Source of the DNA: Escherichia coli | GTDB taxonomy: Bacteria > Pseudomonadota > Gammaproteobacteria > Enterobacterales > Enterobacteriaceae | DNA: 64,000 nucleotides | NCBI RefSeq assembly: GCF_044324785.1 | Contig: NZ_CP172127.1 | Strand: one strand, 5' to 3' | Shown: piece after piece, positions 2,170 through 22,543 of the stretch | Position numbering within the stretch: the stretch's first letter is position 1 | Layout: each line of letters begins with the position of its first letter | Notes under the pieces: generated by a model | The model's input: the letters and a program-made list of their open reading frames with translations, nothing else | What the model was told of the DNA's origin: nothing | The model's database searches: none | Position numbers and translations under genes: made by a program

Positions 2170-2429
2170 TTCGCACTCTCCACATCGATTAAACCGATAT
2201 CTATCAGGGAGGTAACTTTTTGTAGCCAGCTATTGATTACTGTCGCCTGTTCCCCTCCCACCGAGGGAACAATCTCATTCATCACATGAACCAGACCTGT
2301 GCGCGCTCTGGTAAGCCGTTCAGTCGCGCAATCTGCGGGAGTGAATGTGTCTGGATATGGCTCTTCACGCCCCAGCAATGATTCAATTTCCAGCTCACAC
2401 GGATGACGATAAATTAAGTTGATATTCAT
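2166..2429 (-). CDS. hypothetical small protein (87 aa)
   Basis: ORF in operon-like array; 4-nt overlap with upstream ORF. Confidence 0.4.
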   Translation of the reverse strand: MNINLIYRHPCELEIESLLGREEPYPDTFTPADCATERLTRARTGLVHVMNEIVPSVGGEQATVINSWLQKVTSLIDIGLIDVESAK

Positions 2430-2620
2430 TTTTCACCCCCAAGAATTACCAGCTCGGCACGGGCATCGTTAACCAAAGATGAGCACGCTTTAATCGCATC
2501 CACGACATCAGCAGCGTCCATTTCTTCAGCCGAAAGACTGACAGCAACCAGGACAGCCGCTGCTTGCTCGATTAATTGAAGTGCGGACGTAAGGCGAGGG
2601 GTATTAATTGAGTTATTCAT
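2426..2620 (-). CDS. hypothetical small protein (about 64 aa)
   Basis: ORF 2426-2677 trimmed to ATG at 2620 ([10 protein letters not shown]...) preceded by a G-rich Shine-Dalgarno-like stretch. Confidence 0.35.
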   Translation of the reverse strand: MNNSINTPRLTSALQLIEQAAAVLVAVSLSAEEMDAADVVDAIKACSSLVNDARAELVILGGEK

Positions 2621-3680
2621 TGGTTGCCCCCGTTTTTCCTGGCATTTCGCCACCTTCCAGCAGGAAATGAACGTCACGAACGGCGAGATCCAATATCGCG
2701 AGTAACGCCTTCAGTCTTTCGTCTCGTGAGGGAGAGTTGCTCACCAGAATGTCGTTAATCACTTCTGTCAGTGTGATGATCTGGCTTGTGCGTTCGAGGG
2801 GATCCATATGCACATCGTAGGTTTTAATCATGAGCCACCTCCATGCGGATACGACCAGCAAAAAAGCAGACGTGATCGCGCACCAGAGAACGGCGAGCAT
2901 CGCGTTCAGACTCGGCAGCAATATGATGAATTTTGGCGGTAATTGTCGGGCAATCGCGGCGAACTGCGGCGATAATCCAGATAAATTGCGGTTTTTGGGT
3001 AGGGGTAGTAGCCAGCATGTGGCAGCCTCCATTCGATAGCATGTAACGCTACCACCGGAAACGCCAATTTCGCTGGTGGTAGCCCAGACAGGGTTGGCGT
3101 AACCGGCTCGAATGGATACCGGCGCTTCCGAAGAAGCCCCTGCCTGAGCCACCATTGATTGACAAAGGCGCTGGATTATACACCAACGCCCAAAAAATGG
3201 GTGAGTCAGACCTACGACATAAAAAAAGACGCTCGGCGCGTCATATGTCGCCATTCGATTTACCAGGACGCCAATCCCGGCACCCGTTTTATGAGGTGCC
3301 TTATAACCATAAACCGTGTTGCCGCATAACGGCAAGCTCTTTTTTATGGACTCCGAAAACTCGCTATTGGAAGCACCAGATGCACAGTACATCGCGCTCA
3401 TTTCGTTAACGTCACGCACGTGGACGAATGTTTTTGTGGAGTCACTACACGAGCGGAAGACATCATCTACGACCAGAAATTTTCTGGCGCAGCCGCTGAC
3501 CTTCTCAACGCTAACACCATCGACCGTAATTTCTGACATAGTTAAGGCATCCGCTCCCACCACCAGAAAATGATAAACTTTGCTTGTATCTGCTGTATTA
3601 ATGCCAGACTTTGCTGTCATATTGCTGGATTTTGGCGACATACCTGCCAGTGAAAATGTCTTCTTCTGGACGGTTAGCAT
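2613..3680 (-). CDS. hypothetical protein; gene structure uncertain (355-aa ORF, possibly two genes)
   Basis: Single uninterrupted ORF with a GGAGG Shine-Dalgarno 7 nt before its ATG at 3680; however a second strong GGAGGTG ribosome-binding site precedes an internal ATG at 2831 and the middle of the ORF has a W/C-rich composition atypical of real protein. Confidence 0.3.
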
Positions 3681-3856
3681 TTGTTAACCTCCGCGAACTC
3701 CTTCATGAAACGTGCCAGCGGTTGTACGCATGGCGATTGATACCCGTCGCGATAAAACGTCACTCGGTTGTGAGACACGCTTTCGACAGTAACGAGTGCT
3801 CCGTGGGCATCTTTGTAGCGTTTTTGAGGTTGTGGTGTTCCTGTCGGCTTAAACAT
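3674..3856 (-). CDS. hypothetical small protein (about 60 aa)
   Basis: ORF 3674-3943 trimmed to internal ATG (MFKPTGTPQPQK...) so that it does not run deep into the upstream gene; stop abuts the next ORF start. Confidence 0.3.
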   Translation of the reverse strand: MFKPTGTPQPQKRYKDAHGALVTVESVSHNRVTFYRDGYQSPCVQPLARFMKEFAEVNKC

Positions 3857-4682
3857 GGACCGCCTCCAGACGCTTGGCGAGCCAGCGTTGCGACAGGCGG
3901 GTGAGTTCTCCTTTGCGCTGCTCATATTCCATGCCCATATCAATTAACGTGATATTGGTGCTTTCGAGATATGAGAGGTGCTCAAGCTGTTCTGCGTTCA
4001 TATGGTCGCGAGGTTCGCCAGAATAGCCATTTATCCGCGCCCACTGCTTAGCAGTTAGCCCACCAAGAACGATACGAGAAATCATATTGCTCTCGTTTGT
4101 GTAGTGGTGTTGCTGCGTCGTTTTCCCCTGCTCGGCACGGGCCATATTCAGCGCATCGCACATTGGCTTAAAGTTGTTTGCGGCACTAATACGGGCTTTT
4201 AGCTGGCGACGATAGCGGGCGGCGATTTCAGGCACGCTACGCTGTAATTCTTCCTCGCACTGGATGAAATAACGACGGATAGCGCGACCCTGATCATTGC
4301 GTTCGATCATTGCCAGTTCTTTCGCCATTCCGACACTTAACAGATAGTCTTTGCCGGGTCTGCCAGACTGCTTAATCTTGCTGTAAGCCGCGCCATTCGG
4401 GCTTTTCCCCAAATTTGGGGAAATTGTTTTATGGACTGAGTAATCGTGCCCAATGGTGAAGTCATATTCAGAGATGCGATCAGTGATCCATGTAGAGAAG
4501 TCTTTTCCCACGCCCAACGCTTTGTGTAACGCTTTTGCGCTAACAATATTGGTTTCACGCCCACCGATATGACCAGGAATAACCGGGACAATTGCGGCAA
4601 ATTCATTACCGTTAATTGTGCCCAGAGAGGCGTTCAGATGAGGGGCGGCCTCAGAAATTAATCTGCTTTTTTCGATGTTCAT
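3849..4682 (-). CDS. phage antirepressor-like protein (AntA N-terminal / KilA-C-like C-terminal)
   Basis: 277-aa ORF; sequence features reminiscent of prophage antirepressor families (…AKALHKALGVGKDFSTWITDRI… and C-terminal …ELAMIERNDQGRAIRRYFIQCEEEL…). Family call from memory, not searched. Confidence 0.5.
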   Translation of the reverse strand: MNIEKSRLISEAAPHLNASLGTINGNEFAAIVPVIPGHIGGRETNIVSAKALHKALGVGKDFSTWITDRISEYDFTIGHDYSVHKTISPNLGKSPNGAAYSKIKQSGRPGKDYLLSVGMAKELAMIERNDQGRAIRRYFIQCEEELQRSVPEIAARYRRQLKARISAANNFKPMCDALNMARAEQGKTTQQHHYTNESNMISRIVLGGLTAKQWARINGYSGEPRDHMNAEQLEHLSYLESTNITLIDMGMEYEQRKGELTRLSQRWLAKRLEAVHV

Positions 4683-5435: not shown

Positions 5436-6386
5436 TTAACTATCCACTTTGCCATTTGCCGCAGATCGTAGATGTTTAAGAATTACATCTTCATTAGTTA
5501 TCATAAGTGGTGGAACTTCGTCTAAATGACGAACAAGACAGTCACGCCACTTCTCAGGGCTTATTTCTTTCCTTTCTCCCCTGCATTCATTTGGATACTT
5601 ACTAAGTATATAAATTGCAGATTTTAATAGTTTCTCCCTATTGACTGCGTACCGTTCGGCACGTTTATTAACTTTTAGCGTATTTATATCATTGGATAAC
5701 TTGTTTGCGGATGGTTTGTGCATGGGTCTGTCATAAATATATTTTCCTCCATTTATAAGAAGATTGTATTCATAGTCAGTTATATACATTTTGTTTCGGC
5801 TTATTTCATACCAGCCGTCAATATAAAAAGCTCCGATTTCATAATTATTCGATTTGCTAAACTCGTCACATCTCGGAGGTATCAGTTCGCATACAGAGAT
5901 CTCCCAATCATCCCATTCTGATAGCTCCCGCTCATCGTTATCTATGAACGCAGGCGGAATTGCTAATAGACCGCTCCATCTTTCGATATCTCTTTCATCC
6001 TTCCCAACATTGTATCGCTCTATAACTGAGAAATGTTCTGATTTGTATGAAAACCTCATAAAATACATATAGTTATCGCTATTTTTATAATCAAGTGATG
6101 ATAAGCCATATGATTCGAGATTATCTGCCTTATTGCTCAGATCAAGGAGATAATTCTCATGTGCTGCTTTTGTATCTATATGAAAAATACTATCTGTTTC
6201 AACTTTAAGTAATTCTGGCTCGGCATCTTCATTTTTTGGGTAATGGTAAAACAATTCAATAGGTGGAATTTTTATACATATTTCTAAAACCCCAATTGCT
6301 GCATAGTGTATTAAATCGGATACTTCACATCCGGCCAGTTTGGCTGCTTTATCCAAAGAATAATATTTATGCGCAGGTAATTTCAT
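5436..6386 (-). CDS. hypothetical cargo protein (316 aa), AT-rich, between integrase and alpA
   Basis: Long ORF with markedly AT-rich codon usage compared with flanking genes; N-terminus has an HTH-like stretch (SLDKAAKLAGCEVSDLIHYAAIG); acidic, Y/N/K-rich remainder without recognisable catalytic motif. Confidence 0.55.
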   Translation of the reverse strand: MKLPAHKYYSLDKAAKLAGCEVSDLIHYAAIGVLEICIKIPPIELFYHYPKNEDAEPELLKVETDSIFHIDTKAAHENYLLDLSNKADNLESYGLSSLDYKNSDNYMYFMRFSYKSEHFSVIERYNVGKDERDIERWSGLLAIPPAFIDNDERELSEWDDWEISVCELIPPRCDEFSKSNNYEIGAFYIDGWYEISRNKMYITDYEYNLLINGGKYIYDRPMHKPSANKLSNDINTLKVNKRAERYAVNREKLLKSAIYILSKYPNECRGERKEISPEKWRDCLVRHLDEVPPLMITNEDVILKHLRSAANGKVDS

Positions 6387-7738: not shown

Positions 7739-7783
7739 GCATATTGTGCGCTTTGTTGCGTCGTTATGATAGCTCATGATAAC

Positions 7784-7820
7784 AAAAAAGCCCGACATTT
7801 CGCGGGCTTTGTGGTTTTTT
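7784..7820. terminator. bidirectional rho-independent terminator downstream of yicC
   Basis: aaaaaagcccg-acatttcg-cgggctttgtggtttttt: GC stem flanked by A-run and T-run. Confidence 0.5.
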
Positions 7821-7846
7821 GCTGCTTGGTGATTTTTACTGATAGC

Positions 7847-8710
7847 TTATTCGATATTCTGGATCTGCTCGCGCATCTGCTCAATCAACACTTTCAGCTC
7901 GATGGCGGAGTTTGTCACTTCGGCATTGATAGACTTCGAAGCAAGAGTGTTCGACTCGCGGTTGAACTCCTGCATCATAAAGTCCAGACGACGGCCAACC
8001 GCTTCTTTTTTCTTCAGAATGTTGTAGGTCTCTTTGACATGCGCTTCGAGGCGATCCAGTTCTTCGGCAACGTCAATTCGTTGTGCCAGCAGAACCAACT
8101 CCTGCTCCAGACGGTTGTTTTCCAGTTGCACCTGAGCATCTTCCAGCTTCGCGACCAGACGCTCACGCTGCCATTGCAGGATTTCCGGCATATGGGCGCG
8201 GACTTTGACCACTTCGGCGGTGACGCCTTCCAGACGCTGCTCGATCAATGCTTTCAGCGCCTGACCTTCGGTTTCGCGCGCGACGATAAAGTCGTCCAGC
8301 GTACCATCCAACGCCGCGAGAATTTCAGCGGCAATCGCGTCGAGATCCTGCTCCTGGGCTGCCATCACGCCCGGCCAGCGTAGAATATCAACCGGGTTGA
8401 TTTCCCCTTCGTCACTCTGCATTTTTACCCAGTTCGCGGCAGTTACCAGCTGTTTAGCCAGTTTTTCGTTAAGGATCAGCTCACCTTGTGCGCTAACATC
8501 TGGCTCATAACGCAGGGTACATTCCACTTTACCGCGCGTCAGGCGAGAACGAATACGCTCGCGAACGACAGGTTCAAGGCTACGGAACTGCTCCGGCAGA
8601 CGAAAGTAAGTTTCCAGATAACGCTGGTTTACCGAGCGCATTTCCCAGGTTGCGCTCCCCCATTCACCCTTGATTTCACGCCGGGCGTAGGCGGTCATAC
8701 TGCGGATCAT
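7847..8710 (-). CDS. yicC: YicC family stress-induced protein
   Basis: 287-aa ORF MIRSMTAYARREIKGEWGSATWEMRSVNQRYLETYFRLPEQFR... recognised as YicC; conserved position next to rph. Confidence 0.9.
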   Translation of the reverse strand: MIRSMTAYARREIKGEWGSATWEMRSVNQRYLETYFRLPEQFRSLEPVVRERIRSRLTRGKVECTLRYEPDVSAQGELILNEKLAKQLVTAANWVKMQSDEGEINPVDILRWPGVMAAQEQDLDAIAAEILAALDGTLDDFIVARETEGQALKALIEQRLEGVTAEVVKVRAHMPEILQWQRERLVAKLEDAQVQLENNRLEQELVLLAQRIDVAEELDRLEAHVKETYNILKKKEAVGRRLDFMMQEFNRESNTLASKSINAEVTNSAIELKVLIEQMREQIQNIE

Positions 8711-16346: not shown

Positions 16347-18111
<1,765 letters not shown>

Positions 18112-18424
18112 AGTAAATAGCTGACTTATGGATGTGCTGGGGATTCTATGTATTTAGCTGTGGCTTTACCATTACTTTTCCCGTTTTTGACTTAAATAGC
18201 AATTTACCCGCCAATTCTTGCTGAACATCTATACTTTTTTTGTATTTTTATGCGATTCATTGATTTCTGCAGTACGTGCAGGAAGGAATCGCAGAGCAAC
18301 AGTGAAAGAATATGGTTGCTAATGATTTTATTTGATTGATTTCTTTATTGAAAATCAACAATGTGCTTAAAAATCATTCGGGTCGGATTGCCGCGAAAGA
18401 AGTGATACACTAGCGCGTCAATAT

Positions 18425-18474
18425 CAGTGCGGTATCAGTATTCAGGTAGCTGTTGAGCCTGGGGCGGTAGCGTG
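18425..18474 (+). promoter_or_regulatory. JUMPStart element containing ops site (GGCGGTAGCGTG) for RfaH-dependent antitermination of the waaQ operon
   Basis: cagtgcggtatcagtattcaggtagctgttgagcctggggcggtagcgtg read directly; ops 12-mer at 18463-18474. Confidence 0.8.
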
Positions 18475-18523
18475 CTTTTTCTGCTTCACCTTAATCGGAT
18501 AATCTCAACAAAAAGAGTTACTT

Positions 18524-19582
18524 GTGGATAAGCCATTTCGAAGAATTTTGCTCATTAAGATGCGTTTTCATGGGGATATGTTATTAACTACTCCCGTCAT
18601 TAGTTCGCTGAAAAAAAATTACCCTGACGCAAAAATCGATGTGCTGCTTTATCAGGACACCATCCCGATCCTGTCTGAAAATCCAGAGATTAACGCGCTC
18701 TACGGCATAAAAAATAAAAAAGCAAAAGCCTCAGAAAAAATTGCCAACTTTTTTCATCTCATCAAGGTATTACGTGCCAATAAGTATGACCTTATCGTCA
18801 ATCTTACCGATCAATGGATGGTTGCTATACTGGTTCGCTTATTAAATGCCCGTGTGAAAATTTCCCAGGATTATCATCATCGGCAGTCTGCTTTTTGGCG
18901 TAATAGTTTCACTCATTTGGTGCCGTTGCAGGGTGGAAATGTGGTGGAAAGTAACTTATCCGTGCTATCGCCATTGAGACTTGAATCGTTGGTGAAGCAG
19001 ACAACCATGAGTTACCCGCCTGCAAGCTGGAAACGTATGCGTCGCGAACTTGATCACGCTGGTGTTGGACAAAATTATGTGGTTATCCAACCTACGGCGC
19101 GGCAAATCTTCAAATGCTGGGACAACGCCAAGTTTTCCGCTGTGATTGATGCCTTACATGCTCGTGGTTATGAAGTCGTTCTGACGTCCGGCCCAGATAA
19201 AGACGATCTGGCCTGCGTCAATGAAATTGCCCAGGGATGCCAGACGCTACCAGTAACGGCGCTGGCCGGAAAGGTGACCTTCCCGGAACTTGGTGCGTTA
19301 ATCGATCATGCCCAGCTGTTTATTGGCGTTGATTCCGCACCGGCGCATATTGCCGCTGCAGTTAATACGCCGCTGATATCGCTGTTTGGTGCGACAGACC
19401 ATATTTTCTGGCGTCCCTGGTCAAATAACATGATTCAATTCTGGGCGGGAGATTACCGGGAAATGCCAACGCGCGATCAGCGTGACCGAAATGAGATGTA
19501 TCTTTCGGTTATTCCGGCGGCAGATGTCATTGCTGCTGTCGATAAATTACTGCCCTCCTCCACGACAGGTACGTCGTTATGA
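18524..19582 (+). CDS. waaQ: LPS heptosyltransferase III
   Basis: GTG start at 18524 keeps the conserved heptosyltransferase N-terminus (RRILLIK...GDML.TTPV); product recognised as WaaQ. Confidence 0.8.
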   Translation: MDKPFRRILLIKMRFHGDMLLTTPVISSLKKNYPDAKIDVLLYQDTIPILSENPEINALYGIKNKKAKASEKIANFFHLIKVLRANKYDLIVNLTDQWMVAILVRLLNARVKISQDYHHRQSAFWRNSFTHLVPLQGGNVVESNLSVLSPLRLESLVKQTTMSYPPASWKRMRRELDHAGVGQNYVVIQPTARQIFKCWDNAKFSAVIDALHARGYEVVLTSGPDKDDLACVNEIAQGCQTLPVTALAGKVTFPELGALIDHAQLFIGVDSAPAHIAAAVNTPLISLFGATDHIFWRPWSNNMIQFWAGDYREMPTRDQRDRNEMYLSVIPAADVIAAVDKLLPSSTTGTSL

Positions 19583-20703
19583 TCGTTGCTTTTTGTTTAT
19601 ATAAATATTTTCCCTTTGGCGGTTTGCAGCGCGATTTCATGCGTATTGCTCAGACAGTCGCCGCCCGAGGTCATCATGTTCGGGTTTATACCCAGTCGTG
19701 GGAAGGCGAATGCCCTGATGTATTTGAACTGATCAAAGTGCCGGTTAAATCGCATACCAATCACGGGCGCAATGCGGAGTATTTTGCCTGGGTGCAAAAA
19801 CATTTACGCGAACATCCCGTCGATAGAGTCGTTGGATTTAATAAAATGCCGGGGCTGGACGTTTATTATGCCGCTGATGTTTGTTATGCCGAGAAAGTAG
19901 CGCAGGAAAAAGGCTTTTTCTATCGCCTGACGTCACGTTATCGCCATTATGCCGCCTTTGAGCGGGCAACCTTCGAACAGGGCAAGCCGACACAGCTGCT
20001 GATGCTGACAGATAAGCAAATCGCCGATTTCCAGAAACATTATCAGACTGAAGCGGAGCGTTTTCATATTCTGCCACCGGGGATTTATCCTGATCGTAAA
20101 TATAGCCAGCAGCCAGCCAATAGCCGTGAAATCTTCCGTAAGAAGAATGGAATAACCGAACAACAATATTTATTGTTGCAGGTCGGTTCAGACTTCACGC
20201 GTAAAGGTGTCGATCGTTCCATTGAAGCACTTGCTTCATTACCGGATACGCTGCGCCACAACACATTGCTATATGTTGTTGGGCAGGATAAACCGCGAAA
20301 ATTTGAGGCGCTGGCAGAAAAACGCGGCGTGCGCAGTAATGTTCACTTCTTCTCGGGGCGCAACGATGTCTCGGAATTAATGGCGGCGGCGGATTTATTA
20401 CTGCATCCTGCCTACCAGGAAGCGGCGGGAATTGTGCTGCTGGAAGCGATTACTGCAGGATTACCGGTACTAACAACTGCCGTTTGCGGCTATGCGCATT
20501 ATATTGTCGACGCCAATTGCGGCGAGGCTATTGCTGAGCCATTCCGCCAGGAAACATTGAATGAGATTTTACGCAAAGCGTTAACGCAATCTTCATTGCG
20601 CCAGGCCTGGGCGGAAAATGCGCGACATTATGCTGATACACAAGATTTATACAGTCTGCCAGAAAAAGCGGCGGATATCATAACGGGTGGTCTGGATGGT
20701 TGA
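19579..20703 (+). CDS. waaG: LPS core glucosyltransferase I (GT4)
   Basis: 374-aa [42 protein letters not shown]... Confidence 0.9.
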
Positions 20704-21493
20704 ACTTAAAGAGCCGTTTGCCACGTTATGGCGCGGTAAAGATCCTTTTGAGGAAGTTAAAACCTTGCAGGGTGAGGTTTTTCGTGAACTGGAAACTCGC
20801 CGCACTCTGCGCTTTGAAATGGCGGGCAAAAGCTATTTTCTCAAATGGCATCGCGGCACGACCCTGAAAGAGATAATCAAAAATTTACTCTCATTACGGA
20901 TGCCAGTATTAGGCGCAGACCGCGAATGGAATGCGATTCATCGACTGCGGGATGTCGGCGTTGATACTATGTATGGGGTGGCATTCGGCGAAAAAGGCAT
21001 TAATCCGCTGACCAGAACCTCGTTTATTATAACCGAAGATCTGACACCAACCATCAGTCTGGAAGATTACTGTGCTGACTGGGCGACTAACCCTCCAGAT
21101 GTTCGCGTAAAGCGTATGCTTATTAAGCGTGTCGCGATGATGGTGCGCGATATGCATGCTGCGGGCATTAACCACCGTGACTGTTATATCTGTCATTTCC
21201 TGCTGCACTTGCCTTTTTCCGGTAAGGAAGAGGAGTTAAAAATTTCGGTAATTGACCTGCACCGGGCGCAGCTTCGCACGCGCGTTCCACGTCGTTGGCG
21301 CGATAAAGATCTTATTGGGCTTTATTTTTCTTCGATGAATATCGGCCTGACTCAGCGGGATATCTGGCGGTTTATGAAAGTGTATTTTGCCGCCCCGCTT
21401 AAAGACATTCTCAAGCAGGAACAAGGACTGCTGTCGCAAGCAGAAGCAAAAGCCACAAAAATCAGGGAAAGAACGATTAGAAAATCGTTGTAA
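20696..21493 (+). CDS. waaP: LPS core heptose I kinase
   Basis: ORF trimmed to [41 protein letters not shown]... Confidence 0.9.
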
Positions 21494-21535
21494 CCCGTAA
21501 CTTATTTTTGCCAAAAATTTGGATACAGAGTAAAT

Positions 21536-22543
21536 ATGTCTCAACTCAATGATAGTGACATCATCCTTTTTGAGTATAATTTTCATTATCAAAATATAAG
21601 ATCTAAAAATACTCTTGATATAGCATTTGGTATTGACAGAAATTTTCTTTTTGGATGTGGTGTAGCCATTGCATCTATTCTATTAAACAATAGCGAAATC
21701 TCTTGTGAATTTCATGTTTTCACAGATTATATCAGTGATAAAGACAAGTTATATTTTTCCGATTTAGCAAAACAATATAATTCAAGAATTAATATTTATG
21801 TTATCAATTGTGATAAGCTGAAGTCATTACCAAGCACGAAAAACTGGACTTACGCAACATATTTTCGATTTATAATTGCAGATTATTTCTATAATAAACA
21901 TGAAAAAATACTATATCTTGATGCAGATATTGCTTGCAAGGGTAGTATTAAAGAACTCTTAGATTATCAATTTTCTACTAATGAAATTGCCGCAGTTGTA
22001 GCTGAAAGAGATATTGAATGGTGGCAGAATCGAGCCTCGGTATTAACTACACCACAATTAGGTTCTGGATATTTCAATGCTGGTTTTTTGCTGATAAATA
22101 TTGATGAGTGGAATCTAAATAACATTTCGTCAAAAGCTATTGAAATGCTGCGTGACCCAGATTGGGTAAGTAAAATCACCCACCTTGATCAAGATGTACT
22201 GAATGTATTATTGAATGGTAAAGTGAAGTTTGTTTCGGGGAAATATAATACCCGATATAGTATTAACTATGAATTAAAAGACAAAGTTGATAATCCAGTT
22301 AATGATGACACCGTGTTTATACACTATGTGGGACCTACAAAACCCTGGCATGAGTGGGCTGATTATCCGGTGTCACGTAGTTTTTTGATCGCCAAAGCAG
22401 CTTCTCCGTGGTGTAAAGAAGATTTACTTAAACCTGTGAATAGCAATCAGTATCGGTATTGTGCAAAACATAAATTTAAACAAAAGCATTATATTGCAGG
22501 CATTTTTAATTATTTAAAGTATTATAAAGAAAAATGCTTCTAA
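21536..22543 (+). CDS. waaI: LPS outer-core glycosyltransferase, family GT8 (WaaI/WaaO-like; first outer-core alpha-1,3 hexosyltransferase)
   Basis: 335-aa ORF with GT8 features (FGIDRNF..., DxD in LYLDADI, C-terminal HYVGPTKPWHEW); AT-rich. Symbol is an R3-type assignment inferred from gene order. Confidence 0.55.
   Translation: MSQLNDSDIILFEYNFHYQNIRSKNTLDIAFGIDRNFLFGCGVAIASILLNNSEISCEFHVFTDYISDKDKLYFSDLAKQYNSRINIYVINCDKLKSLPSTKNWTYATYFRFIIADYFYNKHEKILYLDADIACKGSIKELLDYQFSTNEIAAVVAERDIEWWQNRASVLTTPQLGSGYFNAGFLLINIDEWNLNNISSKAIEMLRDPDWVSKITHLDQDVLNVLLNGKVKFVSGKYNTRYSINYELKDKVDNPVNDDTVFIHYVGPTKPWHEWADYPVSRSFLIAKAASPWCKEDLLKPVNSNQYRYCAKHKFKQKHYIAGIFNYLKYYKEKCF

Follow-up and report, generated by a model that had tools for sequence, protein, structure and literature searches.

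A 355-codon open reading frame laid over an RNA immunity region in an Escherichia coli phage satellite

Introduction

What is encoded by an open reading frame (ORF) of 355 codons which has a good ribosome-binding site before its first ATG, a second and stronger one before an in-frame ATG near its end, and a stretch of unusual amino acid composition between the two? The ORF in question lies in a stretch of 64,000 nucleotides (nt) of Escherichia coli DNA (contig NZ_CP172127.1 of assembly GCF_044324785.1), here referred to as the window, and is labelled as an ash family protein by the Prokaryotic Genome Annotation Pipeline (PGAP). The initial annotation, made from the letters of the sequence, had left three options for it: two genes, an internal-start isoform, or a recently fused or decayed gene. 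The observation behind these options is real and its interpretation was partly supported, but the main content of the locus had been missed. The ORF runs across two structured RNA genes, belonging to the isrK and C4 families, and across a further gene, icd, in another frame. The locus is of a known kind, namely an RNA immunity region of the P4-eta/CI/kil and P1-c4/icd type, and the part of the window that contains it is the region for immunity and early control of a phage satellite of the P4/phage-inducible chromosomal island (PICI) type. We consider it probable, at roughly 0.72, that the ORF is the eta-type read-through frame of this satellite immunity region, which would make it part of a locus under layered control.

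Results

The long ORF and the RNA genes within it

The initial annotation was silent on the strand; all parts of the feature map to the minus strand, with the ORF running from 3680 to 2613 and its stop codon at 2615-2613 (Table 1). The Shine-Dalgarno (SD) sequence noticed before the first ATG (3680-3678) was located as GGAGG at 3692-3688. This ATG overlaps the stop codon (TAA, 3676-3674) of the upstream DUF4222 gene in the sequence ATGCTAA, and the start of the long ORF is predicted to be translationally coupled to that gene. At the other end, the ORF finishes 8 nt beyond the ATG (2620) of the following gene. The second SD sequence, GGAGGTG, and the in-frame ATG at 2831-2829, which gives a product of 72 amino acids (aa), were both confirmed. 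The region ahead of this ATG had been described as rich in tryptophan and cysteine, and the measured content of these two residues is 8.8% in the 80 codons from 3071 to 2832, compared with 3.1% in the N-terminal 127 codons and 0% in the 72-aa part.

A scan with Rfam models disclosed an isrK-type leader RNA and a C4/CI-type antisense immunity RNA, both full length, both inside the ORF and both on the same strand as the ORF. The isrK match includes an intrinsic terminator, with the stem at 3242-3228 followed by a U-run, and carries two short target sites for the C4 RNA, a1 (3275-3268) and b1 (3258-3251). In one relative the Rfam family of a1b1 targets (RF03163) overlaps isrK. A promoter-like motif is found 7 nt ahead of the isrK 5' end, within the last 36 nt of the upstream coding part, and the promoter-region sequence CTTGCC...TATGGTTAT is kept across divergent alleles.

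The fold of the C4 stretch is much more stable than that of shuffled sequence (z = -5.8), and in 25 alleles none of its 27 predicted pairs is ever broken, while 15 pairs show compensatory double changes. The loop of its second hairpin, b' (UCCAUUCGA, 3116-3108), is complementary to TCGAATGG at b1 in isrK and to TCGAATGGA at b2 in the icd leader. Its bulge a' (ACGCCAA, 3100-3094) is complementary to ATTGGCGT, which is present at both a1 and a2. The b2 site overlaps the SD sequence of icd itself (GGAGG, 3030-3026).

Related loci, 79 in number, were gathered with the Icd protein as bait, and in about 70 the module has a nearly fixed spacing. The 55 distinct sequences include 23 variants of the b' loop and 12 of the a' bulge, each complementary to its own two targets. 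Mean lengths of the complementary runs are 8.6 and 10.3 nt in cognate pairs but 4.5 and 5.6 nt in non-cognate ones, the second value of each pair being that of the loop and its targets over the 23 loop variants. The RNA gene, the upstream targets and the downstream targets thus show a three-way co-variation and, as far as sequence can tell, appear to make up a working RNA switch. Nature provides here, in 23 alleles whose loop and targets co-vary, direct evidence that immunity specificity in E. coli satellites is based on RNA.

In five of the related islands (L017 and L019-L022, RNA region about 2220-2500 in each) icd is 98–99% identical to that of the window, and the C4 and target alleles differ to the point that C4 gives no BLAST match. 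Since the C4 alleles of islands with such similar icd genes are not alignable, the immunity types have been swapped as cassettes, and immunity-specificity cassettes appear to recombine between otherwise near-identical islands. One of the five, L017, has a 39-nt in-frame deletion between isrK and C4.

Table 1. Features of the long-ORF locus. Positions are those of the window, except in the last row, where they are those of the loci named.
Feature	Position	Strand	Details
Eta-like long ORF	2613–3680	(-)	355 codons and stop; PGAP label 'ash family protein'
N-terminal coding part	3533–3680	(-)	variable sites by codon position [5,3,14]; dN/dS 0.33; only stop-free frame of six
P22-type small-terminase (terS) fragment	3426–3532	(+) sense, antisense to ORF	107 bp; corresponds to terS nt 268-374
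Second coding part	3300–3425	(-)	dN/dS 0.22; stop-free only in the ORF frame
Internal promoter-like motif	3306–3335	(-)	TTGCCG 3335-3330, 18 nt, TATGGT 3311-3306
isrK-type leader RNA	3222–3299	(-)	Rfam RF01394; 67.1 bits (gathering score 50); model 1-77 of 77
C4/CI-type antisense immunity RNA	3072–3159	(-)	Rfam RF01695; 79.5 bits (gathering score 45); model 1-87 of 87
Second C4 target set, icd leader	3026–3068	(-)	a2 ATTGGCGT 3068-3061; b2 TCGAATGGA 3036-3028
Icd/Kil-like gene	2824–3018	(-)	64 aa; frame differs from long ORF; NCBIfam NF033153, 71.7 bits (cut-off 25)
72-aa gene	2613–2831	(-)	in frame with long ORF, shared stop; SD GGAGGTG 2842-2836
Inconsistently annotated loci	L001 3697–4127; L002 1764–2660; L003 1743–2528; L008 1271–2338		PGAP

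Conservation of the open frame and selection along it

Of 78 related loci, 77 have one frame, and no more than one, that is open from at least 85 nt ahead of isrK, passes over the two RNAs and continues beyond the icd start. The same is true of loci whose DNA on the upstream side of isrK and the downstream side of icd cannot be aligned to the window, and in all close homologues the long frame is open. Two arrangements occur. The open frame is that of icd in 30 loci, where it ends at the icd stop; the other 47, among them the window, use the +1 frame of icd and read on to the stop codon of the gene that follows. Within icd, the +1 frame contains stops in 0 of the 40 unique sequences that use it and in 15 of the 21 that do not (Fisher p = 8e-10, uncorrected for shared ancestry).

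Substitutions were then counted segment by segment in 16 close homologues. The ratio of nonsynonymous to synonymous substitution rates (dN/dS) is low in the two coding parts that flank the terS fragment, and both are of coding type in the ORF frame (Table 1). A gene on the opposite strand was considered as the source of the periodicity at the N-terminus and rejected, as the plus-strand frame that shares the phase has stops in both segments. From isrK to the icd leader there is no codon periodicity, dN/dS is 0.8–1.9, and a stop never occurs in the ORF frame. Selection therefore keeps the frame open but does not act on its middle as protein. The unusual composition is explained by the same fact: the stretch rich in tryptophan and cysteine is icd, a real gene, read in its +1 frame, and what selection appears to preserve in the ORF is mainly its openness and not its amino acid sequence. 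As to a single 355-aa protein conserved among homologues, which the initial annotation had thought of as the opposite outcome, the frame is indeed conserved, but the middle third evolves as RNA and not as protein.

The same data bear on two alternatives. It could be supposed that the long ORF is never translated and is open by a chance lack of stops in a conserved RNA and in neighbours that are in phase with it. The RNA part is conserved as nucleotides, so that its open frame would be inherited and not re-selected, and PGAP often splits the region into an 'ash' pseudogene and Icd. The cassettes upstream of isrK that are unalignable as DNA are, however, all open and in phase, and of the two frame classes only the one which does not use the icd +1 frame has stops in it. 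Moreover, the N-terminal flanks are of coding type only in this frame, the start overlaps the stop of the upstream gene, and translation of P4 eta is reported as functional in the P4 passages of PMC10111431. We judge this alternative very unlikely. A stricter version, in which the ORF is a purely spurious composite over RNA genes, was dropped, because the frame is open where the upstream DNA is unalignable and the N-terminal flanks are of coding type.

A recent fusion of separate genes by stop loss, or a gene that is breaking up, was suggested by the initial annotation and would agree with the different composition and history of the parts. Frame-breaking relatives also exist, namely L082, with a 10-nt insertion in icd, and L066, which has no open frame. 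Against this stand the open frame in 77 of the 78 loci with its two alternative arrangements, the recurrence of the same architecture at Icd identities from 100% down to about 71% and in P4, and the lack of stop or frameshift remnants among the close homologues. In addition, the locus of strain M10 that PGAP treats as a pseudogene retains all 355 codons of the frame. A recent fusion or decay is hardly credible on these grounds, and the reading of the ORF as an eta-type read-through frame is kept in what follows.

In other island classes (L026, L034, L049, L060, L064 and others) the variable cassette about 100–350 nt upstream of isrK encodes repeated peptides such as FETSTRE, VTSTRDG or TVTREF. 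This suggests short direct DNA repeats, perhaps binding sites or iterons, within the open frame. The repeat-bearing cassettes had no match in the phage collection.

The 'ash' annotation

The sole Pfam match of the 355-aa translation is PF10554 (Phage_ASH), at aa 124-232 with 105.3 bits (gathering score 26). The matched residues correspond to nt ~3311-2985, that is, to the promoter, isrK, C4 and the icd leader. Together with the PHROG 'transcriptional repressor/regulator' families (phrog_6928, 3960, 821 and 995) the Pfam match covers only aa 106-233 (~3365-2985). The Phage_ASH-matched region lacks third-position bias, has the dN/dS of 0.8–1.9 given above and undergoes compensatory changes of RNA type, and does not behave like a protein domain. 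The Phage_ASH and PHROG profiles are largely translations of the two RNA genes, and the label 'repressor' describes the function of the RNA. The names go back to old records of P4 (X02534, X51522, NC_001609), in which part of the P4 frame is called 'put. ash gene' or 'cI gene product'.

These profiles nevertheless offer the best case for a genuine 355-aa protein of the 'Ash/Bro network', for instance an anti-repressor, whose sequence would matter throughout and to which the RNA matches would be secondary. In favour of such a protein are the Phage_ASH score of 105 bits, the PHROG repressor/regulator families, the PGAP name and the N-terminal flanks with dN/dS of 0.22–0.33, and Phage_ASH is treated as a Bro-network domain in PMC10111431. 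On the other side, the Pfam and PHROG matches are confined to the promoter, isrK and C4 DNA, in the very stretch that evolves as RNA and whose alleles are swapped wholesale between islands with 98–99% identical icd. The C-terminal continuation depends on the class of locus, being either Icd itself or the icd +1 frame plus another gene, and the part over icd contains 8.8% tryptophan and cysteine. It is also said of P4, with reference to Ghisotti et al. 1992, that the immunity factor is an RNA and not the product of the 'cI/ash' ORF; Sabbattini et al. 1995 is likewise said to be a source on the P4 immunity region. A protein of this kind is thus unlikely, and the eta-type read-through frame remains the preferred reading.

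PGAP is inconsistent on the same DNA even between near-identical genomes; it is given as a 1068-nt 'ash family protein', as an 'ash' pseudogene plus an Icd-like protein, or as an 897-nt 'Icd-like' fusion (Table 1). The 355-codon frame of the M10 'pseudogene' is intact, and the isrK and C4 RNAs are unannotated at this place in every fetched record. In 478 of 5,426 complete E. coli genomes (~9%) at least 80% of a 1.5-kb query from the locus is present, and some match to the query occurs in ~26% of them; the annotation error is therefore widespread.

The icd and 72-aa genes

The icd gene has the SD sequence mentioned above and is annotated by PGAP in some near-identical loci; P4 kil matches the same NCBIfam model with 76.1 bits. 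The 10-nt insertion of L082 truncates both icd and the long frame, and L082 and L066 may be natural knock-outs.

The 72-aa ORF begins within icd and shares 8 nt with its 3' end. Variable sites are spread over its codon positions as [2,4,6], a third-position bias, and dN/dS is 0.37; standalone clusters of the 72-aa protein exist with 124 and 352 members. In one relative (L002) PGAP lists it as a hypothetical protein. The ORF thus behaves like a real gene, and the proposal of two genes in the initial annotation was right in this respect, although it overlooked both RNA genes, the promoter-like motif, the terminator, icd and the terS/pac fragment. The proposal of an internal-start isoform holds in so far as the 72-aa sequence would be the C-terminus of the long ORF if this is translated, so that the two form a nested pair, but the smaller member has gene features of its own. 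Searches of Pfam, NCBIfam and PHROG gave no match for the N-terminal 127 aa of the long ORF, for the 72-aa protein or for the next small ORFs.

The terS/pac fragment

Between the two coding parts of the N-terminal region lies a fragment of a P22-type small-terminase gene, terS, read in the sense opposite to the ORF (Table 1). It is ~91% identical to the terS genes of E. coli P22-like phages and 86% identical to that of P22, the identities over all of these phages being 86–92%. Its first 22 bp (3426-3447) align with the annotated 22-bp P22 packaging site, pac, and the homology begins at the first base of pac. Variation among the island copies follows the terS frame, with dN/dS of 0.35 against 0.76 in the ORF frame and with the variable sites on terS third positions. 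When the pac 17-mer was compared with the published P22 pseudo-pac pattern (PMC11226127), the window agreed at 15 of 17 positions, sister islands at 15–16 and phages at all 17; a G at pattern position 10 is a deviation fixed in all islands.

Just past the pac core the window is of the Bas106 type and L017 of the P22 type. The best phage match differs by island variant, the fragments being short and their identities 87–92%, and this suggests that an exchange between island fragments and phage terS genes may have taken place. The cassettes of three other island classes (L028, L034, L068) were considered as derivatives of phage packaging regions and discarded, since none of them matched the phage collection. 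A limited literature search found no description of a P22-type pac site in satellites.

The 107-bp piece is possibly the one new feature of the locus. It might be a working, borrowed pac site, or else an antisense decoy directed against the helper terS. Such a site would let this class of satellite use the packaging machinery of a P22-like (Lederbergvirus) helper without a terS of its own, and recombination with terS would keep it matched to the helper. Together with the gp14 and ejection genes of a sister island (see below), it would define a lineage of E. coli satellites with podovirus helpers, with a packaging signal inside a translated regulatory ORF. We advance this tentatively, as an idea that is rather doubtful at present. 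Were the fragment a functioning pac site, it would identify the family of helper phages used by this island class.

The satellite around the locus

The gene order is integrase, AlpA, AntA, DUF4222, the long-ORF locus and small ORFs, with a P4-type primase next in sister islands. P4-type integrase domains and AlpA were found in the window, with yicC and rph on the flanks of the integrase. The primase lies past the end of the window; sister islands of the same gene order carry a TOPRIM/DUF927 or P4-family primase. The tyrosine integrase, AlpA and the primase share one orientation. The border region next to yicC (7743-7846) was examined; no tRNA was found at this island border, and therefore the attachment site is here not a tRNA gene. 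A Trp_leader-like match at 7782-7893 is weak (22.9 bits, E = 0.64) and is probably just the terminator on the yicC side. Between integrase and alpA there is a 316-aa ORF (5436-6386, minus strand) without a Pfam match, and sister islands differ there.

Neighbours in the operon overlap by 4–8 nt throughout (e.g. 2846-2613 and 2620-2426; 3943-3674), as seen for antA/DUF4222, DUF4222/long ORF, icd/72-aa gene and long ORF/next gene. These overlaps imply that the genes from alpA to the primase are translated as a single, tightly coupled unit.

One sister island, L012 (E. coli CFSAN027343, at tRNA-Thr), is 98.9% identical to the window over 2400-3950. Past its primase it carries, at 17829-22487, P22-type genes for gp14-like head morphogenesis and for proteins of DNA ejection and DNA transfer (phrog_651, 598, 917 and 770), a set that fits late-gene capture from a P22-like helper.

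Discussion

For P4, the passages of PMC10111431 on the left operon describe an immunity region ordered eta / seqA / CI RNA (seqB) / seqC / kil, after Forti et al. 1999, in which Kil is a truncated Eta (again citing Forti et al. 1999). There, transcription from a constitutive promoter located inside eta soon ends, through CI-seqA interactions, and the transcript is processed to CI, whereas translation of eta from the upstream promoter is reported to prevent immunity-dependent termination. The same passages state that the C4 and isrK Rfam models detect relatives of CI and seqA in Gram-negative PICIs, inside Phage_ASH genes. In Gifsy-1, the promoter of isrK, its Rho-independent terminator giving a 77-nt RNA, and the read-through mRNA into the downstream genes have all been established by experiment (PMC4825925).

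The anatomy of the locus, its RNA families, the three-way co-variation, the conserved open frame and the selection patterns of its segments are seen in the sequences themselves. From P4, P1 and Gifsy-1 we infer, for the window, the transcription starts, the RNA processing and the anti-termination by translation. A putative constitutive promoter within the long ORF (~3335-3306) would produce an untranslated leader from ~3299. Most of these transcripts would end at the isrK terminator, and those that read through would be processed to the stable C4/CI-type RNA. Its two exposed segments would pair with a1 and b1 in the isrK leader and with a2 and b2 before icd, where b2 covers the icd ribosome-binding site. 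In this immune state the pairing would silence icd, the coupled 72-aa gene and the replication genes downstream. When the upstream promoter, located before alpA, fires, ribosomes coming from DUF4222 would enter the 355-codon ORF and cross the terminator, C4 and the targets. Their passage would stop both the folding and pairing of the RNA and the termination, and expression would become insensitive to immunity. That translation of the ORF prevents immunity-dependent termination is proposed by analogy, and what speaks for it in the window is the selective upkeep of the open frame.

Several points weigh against this reading. The statistics of the open frame, the Fisher p included, ignore the shared ancestry of the loci, and one locus, L066, is without an open frame from isrK to icd. 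The flanks at the N-terminus are under purifying selection (dN/dS 0.33 and 0.22), and the product, or at least its N-terminus, may also work as a protein. The promoter-like motif agrees with the consensus at 8 of 12 positions and was not reported by a consensus scan. Finally, the controlled terminator of P4 is Rho-dependent and lies within kil, which is in frame. The window has icd in another frame and, as its visible terminator, an intrinsic one, and the mechanism of P4 may therefore apply here only in altered form.

The value of the locus lies in the annotation lesson, in the natural covariation evidence for the specificity of RNA immunity, and in the pac fragment as a possibly new element. 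Within 1 kb it holds a putative promoter, a terminator, two RNAs, four RNA targets, one gene out of frame with the ORF, another nested in frame and a site derived from a phage.

Comparison with known systems

P4 is the closest counterpart in anatomy. Its own frame of 214 codons (L010, 895-1539) spans an isrK match (1015-1092) and a C4 match (1200-1287), with Phage_ASH at aa 37-161 and an Icd-like part at aa 161-208, after which epsilon overlaps by 8 nt. As in the window, where the promoter is a candidate and the coupling is predicted, P4 has a long ORF whose coupled start lies upstream of an internal constitutive promoter. This ORF covers seqA, which is an isrK-type leader, and a C4/CI RNA; after the RNAs comes an Icd-like gene, kil, whose end is overlapped by the following gene over 8 nt. 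These features were verified in the P4 sequence. The motif at 3335-3306 is the candidate counterpart of P4 PLE and of Gifsy-1 PisrK. The two loci differ in that kil is the in-frame 3' end of eta, while here icd is out of frame and is crossed by the long ORF in the +1 frame. The P4 arrangement, with kil/icd in frame, is found in 30 of 77 loci and the out-of-frame arrangement of the window in 47. The in-frame nested gene is here the following 72-aa ORF; it sits where epsilon follows kil in P4 and is no epsilon homologue, having no match to Pfam Derepression (PF25738), the family that P4 epsilon matches. The frame has ~200 codons in P4 against 355 here, where the N-terminal part is longer and includes the terS/pac fragment, which is absent from P4.

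The immI region of P1/P7 (c4 - icd - ant; RF01695, RF03163) is alike in that a' and b' each have two targets, upstream and downstream of the RNA gene, that b2 covers the icd ribosome-binding site, and that specificity alleles differ by matched changes of loop and target. The logic of P1 c4, with a' and b' set against a1b1 and a2b2, is also that of P4, with CI seqB set against seqA and seqC. An antirepressor is found downstream in P1/P7, whereas satellite replication genes are found here. A long translated ORF over c4 is, to our knowledge, not part of the P1 model.

As regards the candidate pac site, a report by Chen et al. in 2015 (ISME J) is said to describe SaPIbov5-type islands that carry helper packaging sites instead of a terS of their own. 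The likeness is that of a satellite carrying a copy of the recognition site for helper packaging. SaPIbov5-type islands are Gram-positive, while the candidate site of the window is a helper terS fragment, known from its sequence, which lies antisense within a presumably translated ORF.

Gram-negative PICIs and P4-like satellites, as treated in PMC10111431, share the integrase, AlpA, Bro-type genes (AntA and Phage_ASH, the 'Bro-zone') and the P4-family primase with the present island. That paper gives lambdoid cos phages as helpers and mentions neither a P22-type pac fragment nor ejection-protein genes. The isrK-orf45-anrP-isrJ locus of Gifsy-1 in Salmonella (PMC4825925) has the same isrK element as the window, and in Gifsy-1 this element has its own promoter, a Rho-independent terminator, a 77-nt RNA and read-through. 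There IsrK activates the translation of orf45/anrP in trans, while here isrK looks like a carrier of seqA/a1b1 targets for the C4 RNA.

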